38,184 nt of DNA from a virus. Lineage: Duplodnaviria; Heunggongvirae; Uroviricota; Caudoviricetes. The notes beneath the pieces were generated by a model that was not told the DNA's origin, did not search any database, and saw nothing but the letters and a program-made list of their open reading frames with translations. Location of the stretch: IMG/VR virus record IMGVR_UViG_2531839529_000007; one strand, written 5' to 3'. Position numbers and translations under genes: made by a program. This document shows, one piece after another, positions 34,256 through 36,546 of the stretch; within the stretch, counting starts at the first letter, position 1, and the number at the start of each line of letters is the position of its first letter.

Positions 34256-34399
34256 TTATCCTCGATACTTAGAGGCAGGAATTTTGATAGGAAAGGCTGC
34301 CAAGCCTTTTTGACGAGCAAAGATCCGTTTACCTTTGACCGTAATAAAAGGACGGTAAATTGTGATGTATTCCTCAGATACAGCTTTTTCAATGGTCAT
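34256..34399 (-). CDS. Candidate small basic protein (47 aa)
   Basis: ATG at 34399; encodes MTIEKAVSEEYITIYRPFITVKGKRIFARQKGLAAFPIKIPASKYRG; followed on the minus strand by the terminator GGCCCT-TTTCT-AGGGCC plus TTTTATT (plus 34223-34245). Under the 60-aa track cut-off; weak SD. Confidence 0.3.
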   Translation of the reverse strand: MTIEKAVSEEYITIYRPFITVKGKRIFARQKGLAAFPIKIPASKYRG

Positions 34400-34425
34400 A
34401 TCGTGTTACCTGTAAAGTTTCGCTG

Positions 34426-34453
34426 TTGACAAAACCTAAGGTAAGCGTATACT
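34426..34453 (+). promoter_or_regulatory. Near-consensus sigma-70 promoter
   Basis: -35 TTGACA (34426-34431), 16-bp spacer, -10 TATACT (34448-34453); no plausible plus-strand ORF downstream. Confidence 0.5.
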
Positions 34454-34459
34454 CACAAC

Positions 34460-34522
34460 CGCCAAGTTTTTCGTATTTGCTTACGATAGGAGAAGCCAGC
34501 GACAGCGGTTCGCTGGCTTTTT
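34460..34522 (+). ncRNA. Candidate small RNA (about 60 nt)
   Basis: Predicted start just downstream of the promoter; ends at the intrinsic terminator GCCAGCG-ACAGCGGTT-CGCTGGC plus TTTTT (34495-34522); convergent with the ImmA 3' end. Confidence 0.35.
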
Positions 34523-34524
34523 CG

Positions 34525-35058
34525 TTATCTTTTTGCATTTTTTCTCATCCAAGTTTCAGCCGCTTGTTGACTGACACCAAATGTTTTGCTTATATCTTCA
34601 ACAGTCATTGTGGGCAAAACTAGTCTTGAGTCAATTAAGAAGTGGCTTGCAAAAACATCTGCTTGCCATTCGCTGTCTTCATAGATTTTATGCCCTCCAC
34701 TAGTCTTATTACGTGCATAGATACTTTGATTGCGATGCATGACTAAATGACCAAGTTCATGCGCAACAGTGAATCTCGCATGGTTCTCACCATTGCACAC
34801 TGCATCGTAAACAGATCGCTGTAAAACAATTTTGTTCTTATCTGGATAAGTCACTGCATAGCGTTTGGGCAGTTCATGATCTTCAACAATTTCTAGCTCA
34901 ATGCTTTCTGAGGCCATAAGACCTTCTAGTAATACATCCAGTCTCAGATATGTGTGATTTGATATCTGAAGAACGTCTCTCAGACGATGAGCGTATGATT
35001 TAATCATGCTGGTGCTGAGAGGTGAAACGCGATGGCCAAGTTCTCGTTTCGCAATCAT
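34525..35058 (-). CDS. ImmA/IrrE-family zinc metallopeptidase
   Basis: 177 aa with HExxH motif (HELGHLVMH); immediately downstream of and co-oriented with an XRE-family HTH gene. Confidence 0.85.
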   Translation of the reverse strand: MIAKRELGHRVSPLSTSMIKSYAHRLRDVLQISNHTYLRLDVLLEGLMASESIELEIVEDHELPKRYAVTYPDKNKIVLQRSVYDAVCNGENHARFTVAHELGHLVMHRNQSIYARNKTSGGHKIYEDSEWQADVFASHFLIDSRLVLPTMTVEDISKTFGVSQQAAETWMRKNAKR

Positions 35059-35061
35059 TAT

Positions 35062-35412
35062 TCAGTCCTTTAACATTTTATTAAGCTTATCGAGTTGCTC
35101 TGGACTCAGGTCCTTAAATTTACGAGCAAAAACAAGCATTAGTTCTTTGTTCTGCTCATTTGCATCCGACATATCAACCTTAATGGACGGTTGAGAAATC
35201 TCTGCCTGTTTCTTGAGATTGATGATGTCTTGTCCGCTAAGCTCAAAAGTTGTTGCAATCGTATTTACTAATGAGTCCGGTATAGCTCTTTTGCCTAATT
35301 CAATGGCGGATAAGTAAGCCGAACTAACGCCTAACAGATCAGCCATATTTTTGAGCACCATACCCCGGTCTATTCTCATTTTTCTGAGAGTCTTACCAAA
35401 GCTAGTTACCAT
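35062..35412 (-). CDS. XRE-family helix-turn-helix transcriptional regulator
   Basis: 116 aa from the ATG at 35412 with an AGGAGG SD 6 nt upstream; HTH region LKNMADLLGVSSAYLSAIELGKR; the track ORF has a 9-aa upstream extension. Confidence 0.85.
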   Translation of the reverse strand: MVTSFGKTLRKMRIDRGMVLKNMADLLGVSSAYLSAIELGKRAIPDSLVNTIATTFELSGQDIINLKKQAEISQPSIKVDMSDANEQNKELMLVFARKFKDLSPEQLDKLNKMLKD

Positions 35413-35694
35413 GTTGCGCCTCCTACAATCCATGCTCACTTATACTAAAAACCAAACTCAAGATCAACAAAAATTGTAGAATTTTTTAATCTCAGCGTGT
35501 GATGACAATCTACATAAAATCATGAAATGGTGCAAGGCGTAACTTAAAAAATACCATATGTAGTGTCAATTTTATGTGCTGTATGGATATATGGGGTTGG
35601 TAAACTTTTGCTCTTTTGTGCTCCTCAGCTATATGGTTGTTTGATTTTTGAACATCTTGTGGAACATAAATTGGGTTTATGCTTTTCCCTTTCG

Positions 35695-35722
35695 GTGACA
35701 ACATGTTTATAGGATGTATAAT
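35695..35722 (+). promoter_or_regulatory. Sigma-70-type promoter for the BRO-N gene
   Basis: -35 GTGACA, 16-bp spacer, perfect -10 TATAAT (35717-35722); AGGAGG SD at 35733-35738; GTG start at 35746. Confidence 0.5.
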
Positions 35723-35745
35723 CCATAAAAAAAGGAGGGGATGGC

Positions 35746-36507
35746 GTGCAAAAGAATTTGTTACAATTATGCTACGAAGGAGAGTGTGGAGAAAATTATA
35801 TCCGTAGCATGAATGAAAAAGGGCAGATTTTTGTTTCACTTTCAGATGTGCTAAGAACGCTTTCTGCTGAGAACAGAAAACTGGATGGAAAGACTTCTCA
35901 AAGCTTGCTCACTGTAATAAGAGCGGTAATAAAAACTTTAGATCCAGATGAGTTTAGGAATGTTTCTCTTGTCGTGGATGGTGAAACTATCTCTGAGGTA
36001 TTTCTTACTGAACCAGGTCTATATAGAGTACTTGCTCAGGATACTACTGCTGCGGGGAAAAAATTCCAACGCTGGCTTTTTCATCAGGTCCTTCCGTCTA
36101 TTCGTGAATTTGGTGTATATCCTCCGCCACCTAAGCAAGAACGTTCAGAACTGAGTGCTTTTGCTAACAGTCTGCAGCAGACGGTTCAAGCATTGGTAAT
36201 GGAAATAGAAAAACGTGAAGAGTTAGAAAGTAGAGTAAACCAAGTTGAACTAAAAGTTAACTCGTTAGAAAGTTTAAGAGATTTGTCTCAGTTCAGAAGT
36301 GTTCCTCAACGATTGATGGAGTTAGGTTTGGATACCTATTCGGTTGAGGAGCTTTGGCAATGGTGTGAAAAATTGCGTAGTGAACGTGGAGCAGAAAGAA
36401 TTAAGTGCCCCTCCGGATTGAATATAAATTCTTGCTATCCATTAGCTTTGGTTGATGAAGCTATCGCTATATACCAGAAAGTAGTTGAGGCAAGAACACG
36501 TCAGTGA
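35746..36507 (+). CDS. BRO-N domain protein (antirepressor-like) with coiled-coil C-terminal region
   Basis: 253 aa; BRO-N-like N-terminal region (GQIFVSLSDVLRTLSAENRK...FRNVSLVVDGETISEVFLTEPGLYRVL); transcribed divergently from the XRE/ImmA pair. Confidence 0.75.
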   Translation: MQKNLLQLCYEGECGENYIRSMNEKGQIFVSLSDVLRTLSAENRKLDGKTSQSLLTVIRAVIKTLDPDEFRNVSLVVDGETISEVFLTEPGLYRVLAQDTTAAGKKFQRWLFHQVLPSIREFGVYPPPPKQERSELSAFANSLQQTVQALVMEIEKREELESRVNQVELKVNSLESLRDLSQFRSVPQRLMELGLDTYSVEELWQWCEKLRSERGAERIKCPSGLNINSCYPLALVDEAIAIYQKVVEARTRQ

Positions 36508-36522
36508 GCTTGAGGGAAAAAA

Positions 36523-36546
36523 AGCCCGCATAAGCGGGCTTTTTTA
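36523..36546 (+). terminator. Rho-independent terminator after the BRO-N gene
   Basis: GCCCGC-ATAA-GCGGGC stem-loop followed by TTTTTTAT. Confidence 0.8.

Follow-up and report, generated by a model that had tools for sequence, protein, structure and literature searches.

Switches that pair an XRE-family repressor with an M78 zinc metallopeptidase act through cleavage of the repressor: ImmA cleaves ImmR, IrrE cleaves DdrO, and CapP cleaves CapH upon sensing single-stranded DNA (ssDNA) (PMC2701414; PMC13228613). CapP consists of the peptidase, a helix-turn-helix (HTH) domain and a C-terminal GAF domain that form an ssDNA groove, and many CapP proteins, not all, have a Cys-switch loop between the HExxH motif and the third zinc ligand (PMC13228613). 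The subject of this work is a pair of the same kind at the right end of a 38,184-nucleotide (nt) stretch of viral DNA, IMG/VR record IMGVR_UViG_2531839529_000007, referred to here as the window. An initial annotation of this DNA saw a CapH/CapP-like damage switch with a divergent BRO-N gene as its regulated cargo, the whole forming one 2.6-kb unit. The region is best described as a variant of the ImmR/ImmA–CapH/CapP kind of switch, with an unannotated small protein as its conserved output under predicted antisense-RNA control.

We propose that two independent accessory modules lie here, in a hotspot between the tail-fibre genes and the attachment (att) site, and that the first is an ImmA-type switch with an antisense-guarded output, the 47-amino-acid (aa) product of an open reading frame (ORF) termed ORF47. 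We consider this reading evenly poised between right and wrong. Module 1 (34223-35575) would be a leftward operon of XRE, M78, a leader ORF and ORF47, with its own terminator and an internal antisense promoter. Module 2 (35690-36546) would comprise the Ant-like BRO-N gene, the att-proximal gene of ssrA-integrating lambdoid phages, placed beside Module 1 by juxtaposition only. The coordinates of all features are given in Table 1.

The XRE operon, its predicted antisense RNA and a possible working

The initial description of an XRE gene with a good Shine-Dalgarno (SD) sequence and a co-transcribed HExxH peptidase stands: the SD is GGAGG, the M78 ATG lies 3 nt past the XRE stop on the same strand, and both proteins have Pfam matches. 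The noted resemblance to CapH/CapP is borne out as well, with XRE matching the PADLOC capH profile over its full length (1.2e-10) and the M78 protein matching capP (5e-15), covering only profile positions 31-146 of 242. The intact HExxH of the M78 protein is followed downstream by a glutamic acid in SEWQAD. By its sequence, this protein is a short form without the GAF domain, and a search for the Cys switch found none between H105 and E129.

The predicted XRE promoter falls under the threshold of the generic scan, and its hexamers are kept, with a variable spacer, in an alignment of 7 enterobacterial variants. Upstream of XRE, conservation among these regions covers only ~165 nt and includes blocks that are candidate operators. 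These blocks are preserved regardless of whether the upstream gene is BRO-N, SRAP or an unassigned gene. Related loci do not conserve a 49-aa hydrophobic ORF with a GTG start (35563-35712, + strand) that is situated between the control region of XRE and the promoter of BRO-N, and this ORF is probably spurious.

The basic ORF47, taken in the initial annotation as an appendix to the pair, is present as described and is a conserved third partner of XRE/ImmA. It is conserved in the copies of phage LLS and in Klebsiella-type copies, and its family has the motif Y-x-I-Y-R-P-[YF]-I-T-V-K-G-K-R-I-[YF]-A...G-L-K-A-F-P. An exhaustive phmmer search returned 29 representatives, and a profile search returned at least 1128 clusters, all of them labelled hypothetical and free of Pfam domains. 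For 25 family members, scans against Pfam and NCBIfam gave no match, nor did PHROG or PADLOC for ORF47. The AlphaFold2 (AF2) model has four strands with a predicted local distance difference test score (pLDDT) of 84.6, and its comparison with the PDB found no fold match. The protein is predicted to be soluble, is not hydrophobic and has no transmembrane helix. The possibility that ORF47 and the leader ORF (ORF49) are parts of a frameshifted larger gene was ruled out, as the homologues are stand-alone 40-60-aa proteins everywhere. The stem of the operon terminator is held by compensatory changes (GGCCC/GGGCC versus GCCTTGG/CCAAGGC). Literature searches on the trio, on an ImmA-linked antisense RNA and on the small protein found no description.

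The near-consensus promoter and terminated small RNA (sRNA) of the initial annotation are present as predicted sites and are the best-conserved part of the cassette. The antisense promoter and the BRO-N promoter are the only matches to 11 of the 12 consensus positions in 4.4 kb (32900-37300), where order-1 Markov random sequence gives a mean of 0.16 such matches and a probability of 0.013 for two or more. Taken as a whole, the generic scans yield about as many promoters and terminators as chance predicts (11 versus 10.1 expected, and 3 versus 3.0, respectively); therefore, the credibility of the sites rests on comparative conservation. The block from antisense promoter to terminator is nearly invariant between the window and LLS, the coding parts of which are ~76-80% identical, and among seven variants no other stretch of the module is as conserved (0.94-0.97 versus about 0.8). 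Both promoter hexamers are unchanged in 11 distinct variants, two of which have single spacer substitutions. The 72-nt RNA folds with -26.8 kcal/mol (z = -4.0). Its stem shows one G-C to A-U compensatory pair and two A-U to G-U changes, the other variation being located in loops, and the extended lower stem relies on G-U pairs that are possible only in the + strand RNA. Rfam searches (gathering threshold and E<=5 on the window, gathering threshold on 12 related loci) found no family over the sRNA or the gaps between M78 and the small gene. A 14-nt direct repeat has one copy in the sRNA terminator and one in the coding region of BRO-N; as both are on one strand, they are not complementary, and the repeat was put down to chance.

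The predicted sRNA is complementary to codons 5-27 of the leader ORF, which starts 14 nt ahead of the M78 stop, reaches or traverses the mRNA hairpin described below and in most variants overlaps the ORF47 ATG. The leader ATG is conserved, a 1-nt indel alters its frame and length in LLS-type copies (33 aa), and in other variants it is called at 50 and 53 aa. The frame-breaking indel and the variable length led us to reject ORF49 as a conserved protein. Its amino-acid changes coincide with the covariation in the sRNA stem and with hairpin-loop changes; taken with the indel, this places the constraint on the RNA or DNA rather than on a protein, and the leader is probably a translational-coupling ORF. 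The SD of ORF47 is predicted to be paired in an mRNA hairpin within the highly conserved block. The same pairing is found in the single-sequence minimum-free-energy fold of 5/5 representative variants, and the RNAalifold consensus of 11 variants keeps only the inner stem of the hairpin, with a G-U to A-U change.

The trio recurs far from the window. A profile from 8 ORF47-family sequences, searched against one genome per species, gave 54 loci. At least 10 of these have genes for a ~120-aa XRE and a ~170-200-aa HExxH protein ahead of the small gene. These distant trios occur in Bacillaceae, Clostridia, Alphaproteobacteria, Alteromonadaceae, Spirochaetes and a metagenome-assembled genome labelled Methanobacterium. 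Pfam confirmed 9 M78 and 9 HTH_3 proteins among them, and they align over their full length with those of the window at 32-43% (XRE) and 28-37% (M78) identity. Further copies of the trio are found in Aeromonas and Vibrio, and locus L014 has a second, divergent XRE/M78 pair beside BRO-N, with a divergent small-protein gene. The trios lie at prophage or island edges: after an endolysin gene, or next to an integrase (L067, L081, L115), CI/Cro (Aeromonas) or a SNIPE nuclease.

In the distant trios, the gap between M78 and the small gene is 100-220 nt long, and in 6/10 it contains a terminator on the antisense strand and none on the sense strand. An A-tract and a GC-rich hairpin directly after the M78 stop were seen by eye in L065, L070, L081 and L082, and likewise in Aeromonas, Vibrio and L014. 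These features are suggestive of an antisense RNA that is general beyond the Enterobacteriaceae. In the Alteromonadaceae locus L067 (3567-4105), the small gene and its ~190-nt leader are tandemly duplicated after the M78 gene.

Relatives of ORF47 are also found with other partners. A sub-family with the motif FRPYITVKGKRITRPNGGMFKIP is encoded divergently from a ~290-315-aa WYL regulator (L071, L073, L078, L089-L092, L099) in Morganella, Citrobacter, Vibrio, Aliivibrio, Pseudoalteromonas and other Gammaproteobacteria. Besides the XRE/ImmA-type pairs, WYL-domain regulators form the second large class of DNA-damage sensors linked to defence systems. Another partner, found in Clostridia and Veillonellales, is an unannotated ~260-aa protein with an N-terminus resembling a winged HTH (wHTH), and the small gene lies after it (L047-L052, L055, L058, L085, L087, L096, L098, L118, L121). 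Here, a ~150-nt gap contains an A-tract, then a strong hairpin, with long-range CCCTCTTGC/GCAAGAGGG pairing just before the ribosome-binding site (RBS); an antisense-strand terminator is found in the gap upstream of the small gene in 9/10 of these loci. Either a structured leader or an antisense RNA could account for this gap.

From these observations a working can be proposed. XRE would bind the candidate blocks upstream of its own promoter and keep the operon low. Upon a stress or infection cue, which by analogy with ImmA, IrrE and CapP may be DNA damage or ssDNA, the ImmA-like peptidase would cleave XRE and derepress the operon. The overlap of the leader ORF with the M78 stop and the ORF47 start, together with the hairpin over the SD, has the layout of translational coupling seen in mok/hok and is the reason for proposing coupling and silencing as a second layer of control. 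With the RBS buried in the conserved hairpin, translation of ORF47 would probably require ribosomes traversing the overlapping leader ORF. A constitutive antisense RNA would pair with the leader codons and silence basal transcripts, and only strong induction would outrun it and free ORF47 synthesis. Our best guess is that ORF47 acts as a growth-arresting or abortive-infection effector, or as another DNA-damage-linked factor. Judged by gene context, its neighbours (DinI, UmuDC, SRAP, PD-T4-3) and WYL partners point to a DNA-damage or anti-phage setting.

A wider claim is possible rather than probable: XRE, the short ImmA peptidase, the cis-antisense RNA and the 40-50-aa basic beta-protein may be an undescribed, widespread mobile-element system. 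In it, a proteolytic sensor of stress or infection would drive a small effector of new fold, guarded by antisense RNA in the manner of type I toxin-antitoxin (TA) systems, and the effector family would also have been captured by WYL regulators and the ~260-aa wHTH-like protein. If this were true, regulators that sense DNA damage would have the small effector as a common output, which might be a toxin for abortive infection, an inhibitor of division or replication, or a modulator of RecA/SOS.

Several points weigh against the antisense-guarded switch. Neither the GAF domain nor the Cys switch used for ssDNA sensing in CapP/IrrE is present in the M78 protein, and the cue is a guess. The non-hydrophobic ORF47 is unlike most type I toxins. 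A consistent operator palindrome or repeat was sought in four XRE upstream regions and none was found, which leaves the blocks defined by alignment as the only candidates. The sRNA shows little sequence diversity (11 variants, one compensatory pair), and its conservation could come partly from the overlapping constraints of the M78 end, the leader ORF and the mRNA hairpin. Only about half of the distant trios have a predicted antisense promoter, and none of the Aeromonas and Vibrio copies has one; the A-tract and hairpin of the distant loci could instead be a weak sense attenuator. The recurrent juxtaposition of BRO-N and XRE leaves room for a functional coupling of the two.

BRO-N and the alternative readings

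The BRO-N gene is divergent from the pair and has a TATAAT promoter and its own terminator, as the initial annotation had it. The AF2 model of its product (pLDDT 82) comprises the Bro-N domain, a long helix (135-176) and a small C-terminal alpha/beta domain. The Pfam scan found nothing past residue 117 and no KilA-C/ANT C-terminal domain, and neither the PDB comparison of the model, where nothing was significant, nor PADLOC gave a match. The gene is conserved across Enterobacterales, and its homologues in IMG/VR loci (66-100% identity) retain an ATGACA-17-TATAAT promoter, an A-run and a G-rich RBS, and are followed by an ssrA relic.

That BRO-N is the cargo of a CapH/CapP-like damage switch, with the 2.6-kb cassette as one unit, is an attractive reading that now appears unlikely. 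The divergent arrangement of XRE and BRO-N in four lineages (the window, L013-type, LLS and Klebsiella-type) and their tandem arrangement in a fifth (L014) speak for it, as do the capH and capP profile matches and a genome-wide association of Xre and Bro genes (PMC2701414). On the other hand, the upstream neighbours of BRO-N vary between SRAP, DinI with HicB, UmuD/UmuC, and XRE/M78, and homologues with 66-80% identity have the same promoter and RBS beside unrelated upstream genes, in more than 10 contexts overall. The -35 TGACA and the -10 TATAAT are kept in about 20 such loci; the spacer between them is not conserved and holds no conserved operator. BRO-N is usually found apart from XRE/M78, as in L015-L031, where it has this same promoter. 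Conversely, the XRE-M78-sRNA-ORF47 unit occurs without BRO-N in L038, L039, L108-L111, Aeromonas, Vibrio and others, being flanked in L108-L111 by SRAP upstream and umuDC downstream. The conserved DNA linked to XRE also ends ~120 nt short of the BRO-N -35 box. Since the two units assort independently and the XRE control DNA stops short, BRO-N is not accepted as regulated cargo, and the initial reading is corrected on this point as probably wrong. The initial interpretation is supported in part.

A LexA box (CTG[TAC]N8[ATG]CAG) was sought upstream of 20 BRO-N genes and none was found near the promoter. The strong promoter without a recognisable operator suggests that BRO-N may be expressed in the lysogen. 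In many BRO-N loci (L015-L018, L022, L024, L026, L028, L029, L031), the reverse complement of a tRNA 3' half (...GGTCGGAGGTTCAAATCCTCTCGTGCCGACCA), which we take to be tRNA-Pro-like, abuts and overlaps the -35 box, ~60 nt upstream of BRO-N. In these loci, BRO-N is bracketed by the tRNA relic and a transfer-messenger RNA (tmRNA) relic.

According to another reading, which we consider quite improbable, the pair would be an ImmR/ImmA-type switch for immunity or cross-talk that has been displaced and that senses induction signals, with ORF47 serving as a small regulator (an antirepressor or an excision or induction factor) of this prophage or of co-resident ones and not as a toxin or a defence effector. 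A protease-repressor pair facing an Ant-like gene does resemble lysogeny modules known from ICEBs1 and from temperate phages of Gram-positive bacteria (PMC2701414), the trios adjoining integrases or CI/Cro would fit, and the neighbouring cargo is SOS-related (DinI, UmuDC, SRAP). However, the host phages own CI/Cro-type immunity: the repressor of phage LLS is ~6 kb off, the Aeromonas prophage carries the trio beside its own CI/Cro, and a related intact e14-like prophage has ymfK/ymfT elsewhere, which upholds the initial view that the cassette is not prophage immunity. Moreover, no cro-like gene lies opposite XRE, and the small-protein family is also found with WYL regulators and with the unrelated ~260-aa partner in chromosomal contexts without obvious prophage genes nearby.

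It is very improbable that XRE-COG2856 is a type II TA-like pair beside incidental sRNA signals (a chance promoter and terminator) and a spurious ORF47: such pairs have been predicted to be TA-like (PMC2701414), a Brucella zinc metallopeptidase (ZnMP)/HTH-Xre pair has been investigated as a TA system (PMC10538038), and the overall scans are at chance level, but the ORF47 family is large with a confidently predicted fold, conservation of the trio extends over several phyla, that of the module peaks at the sRNA block, which shows covariation, and two promoter matches of this quality are improbable by chance.

Prophage setting and cassette borders

The DNA of the window is from E. coli, with a 3-kb region 100% identical to strains A22, A32, MIN10 and others. 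The prophage adjoins tRNA-Thr(CGU) (the thrW site) and encodes a Mu-like contractile tail; the vat island lies beyond the window's edge. Outside the early/immunity region, it is 97-99% identical to the e14-like prophage of strain A32. That region, with ymfK/ymfT in A32, is swapped here for an IS3-type element split by a group II intron; therefore, the window prophage is a defective, e14-like one.

After pin, three AT-rich cassettes are spaced by ~40-100-nt repeat copies: a PD-T4-3-like gene, the cassette studied here and an S1-type protease gene. PD-T4-3 is a single-gene anti-phage system. The GC content of this region is 0.38-0.44 versus 0.51-0.59 in the structural region, and repeats B and C are 82% identical, in agreement with the initial description of an AT-rich cassette bracketed by these repeats. 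The S1-type gene may be further defence cargo. Its product shows weak PADLOC likeness to the protease domains of RT-Protease, LmuA and HamA, and a longer ORF of it has a weak ABC-3C CTD12 match at the N-terminus.

Repeats A, B and C match the lambdoid dinI moron at its 3' end and terminator; the copy in phage mEp460 covers the last ~38 nt of dinI and downstream DNA. Sequence like these repeats is present in 4921/5426 E. coli genomes. An ssrA origin of the repeats was ruled out, as only 28 nt match ssrA. The repeats probably act as recombination joints or homology arms for the exchange of cargo cassettes. The ssrA (tmRNA) fragment fused to repeat C is the attP relic of ssrA-integrating lambdoid phages, and its presence inside a prophage integrated at thrW means that the cassette was imported from another phage lineage by recombination. 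The cassette is rare, being found in 34/5426 complete E. coli genomes and one isolated phage, LLS. In strain C7, a lambdoid prophage has it as its final cargo, directly against the genuine ssrA; in LLS, it lies between the Fin invertase and attP, the latter annotated as 'tmRNA pseudogene/attP'. In these phages, the stretch from the tail-fibre genes to att is a hotspot for cassettes, with reused dinI-terminator repeats as borders.

Table 1. Features of the window, with positions, strands and supporting details
Feature	Position	Strand	Details
XRE-family HTH protein, 116 aa	35062-35412	-	PGAP start; Pfam HTH_19/HTH_3, E 3.7e-9, and HTH_31; first gene of leftward operon
ImmA/IrrE-type M78 zinc metallopeptidase, 177 aa	34525-35058	-	PF06114, E 2.8e-11; HELGH at residues 101-105
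Leader ORF (ORF49), 49 aa	34389-34538	-	Overlaps M78 stop and ORF47 start
ORF47, 47 aa, basic	34256-34399	-	Predicted four-stranded beta-protein
Operon terminator	34223-34241	-	From scan; after ORF47
Predicted XRE operon promoter	35439-35467	-	TTGATC-17-TATAAG; conserved hexamers
Candidate operator block	35475-35482		TGTAGAAT; XRE upstream alignment
Candidate operator block	35507-35514		AATCTACA; XRE upstream alignment
Candidate operator block	35530-35535		GTGCAA; XRE upstream alignment
Near-palindrome, candidate operator	35553-35564		ACCATATGTAGT; reads ACTATATATAGT in L108/L110
Predicted antisense RNA promoter	34426-34453	+	TTGACA-16-TATACT; 11/12 consensus match
Predicted cis-antisense RNA, ~65 nt	34459-34524	+	5' single strand, 5-bp stem-loop, 14-bp terminator hairpin, U-tract
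Predicted antisense RNA terminator	34489-34523	+	Hairpin and U-tract; from scan
mRNA hairpin	34406-34444	-	Predicted pairing of ORF47 SD (AGGU) with upstream UACCU; centroid structure
BRO-N protein, 253 aa	35746-36507	+	PF02498, E 2.4e-7; PHROG 'anti-repressor Ant' families, E 4e-17
BRO-N promoter	35695-35722	+	GTGACA-16-TATAAT; 11/12 match
BRO-N bidirectional terminator	36517-36546		A7-GCCCGC-ATAA-GCGGGC-T6, read directly; weak Rfam terminator-type matches on both strands
Repeat A	33002-33038		Shorter copy
Repeat B	34023-34120		Left cassette border; like dinI-moron 3' end/terminator; minus strand folds with terminator hairpin
Repeat C	36692-36789		Right cassette border; fused to 28-nt ssrA fragment
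ssrA (tmRNA) 3'-end fragment	36672-36699		Exact 28-nt copy; tmRNA model positions 347-363; attP relic
GIY-YIG (LEM-3-like) gene	33061-33834	-	PADLOC PD-T4-3, 7e-140; PHROG 5356; between repeats A and B
Trypsin-like (S1) protein, 330 aa	37192-38184	+	After repeat C; PHROG 18002
pin invertase	32448-33002		Adjoins invertible tail-fibre segment
Inverted repeats	30554 / 32367		Around Pin-invertible tail-fibre segment
Integrase	1459-2622		
IS3-family element	6672-10125		orfA 9787-10125; orfB fragments 9335-9760 and 6672-7067
Group II intron match in IS3 element	7130-7216		Rfam RF00029; reverse transcriptase/maturase ORF 7220-8743

Comparison with described systems

Of the described systems, CapH/CapP of CBASS (cyclic oligonucleotide-based antiphage signalling) and other immune operons shares with the window pair the profile matches, the location in a defence and cargo hotspot and the two-protein sensor-repressor logic (Lau et al. 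2022; PMC13228613). However, the M78 protein of the window has 177 aa versus about 288 aa in CapP, with no GAF domain and no switch-loop Cys. No known immune operon is attached to it: BRO-N and ORF47 have no PADLOC match, and the PD-T4-3 gene lies in a separate cassette past repeat B. The cargo would be a 47-aa protein downstream in the same operon.

The ImmR/ImmA systems of ICEBs1 and phi105-type phages have a short ~170-aa M78/COG2856 peptidase without GAF that is co-transcribed with an XRE repressor on a mobile element, and by analogy the repressor of the window is presumed to be inactivated by proteolysis. The gene order differs, with XRE followed by the peptidase and then by a small gene instead of an integrase, and an internal antisense RNA is predicted. 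Furthermore, no excision, transfer or lytic genes face or follow the window pair; it is not the master switch of its element, and the phages have separate CI/Cro. DdrO/IrrE (PprI) of Deinococcus likewise joins an XRE repressor to an M78 peptidase, with DdrO being cut in its C-terminal part after DNA damage. IrrE, in contrast, is a three-domain, chromosomal protein that controls a repair regulon, whereas the window peptidase is short and mobile and has a single small output.

Among type I TA systems, SymE is an SOS-induced, non-membrane toxin, and hok/mok/sok employs leader-ORF coupling. The locus resembles both in its predicted ~65-nt cis-antisense RNA, which has its own promoter and terminator and opposes a small protein. 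As in type I TA loci, the RBS is buried in predicted mRNA structure and an overlapping leader ORF is the putative antisense target; the stress-inducible transcription proposed for the window operon would be a further likeness. Among the differences, ORF47 lacks a transmembrane helix and resembles neither SymE nor Hok nor any other toxin in the catalogues, and induction would come from the XRE/ImmA of the same operon rather than from LexA.

The immI regions of P22 (arc-ant, sar RNA) and P1 (c4 RNA-icd-ant) are also accessory regions outside the main immunity, with an antisense RNA and a nearby Ant-like gene. In the window, the antisense RNA would target the leader of ORF47 instead of the Ant-like gene, there is no sequence similarity, and Mnt/Arc are missing. 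Gifsy antirepressors are LexA-controlled and lie next to dinI. The BRO-N protein of the window resembles such BRO-N/Ant antirepressors in its match to PHROG 'Ant' and its place in a dinI/umuDC cargo region near the prophage end, but no LexA box was found by its gene, it has no KilA-C/ANT Pfam domain, and its promoter looks constitutive.

The interest of XRE/ImmA-type pairs lies in the output that they switch, and at this locus the proposed, conserved output is neither a recognised immune operon nor a set of transfer genes, but a family of 40-50-aa proteins. As phage LLS carries the module, it is directly testable in E. coli K-12. If ORF47 is the effector, the locus would be a compact three-protein-plus-RNA module that unites the proteolytic derepression of the ImmA-type switches with RNA control like that of type I TA systems.

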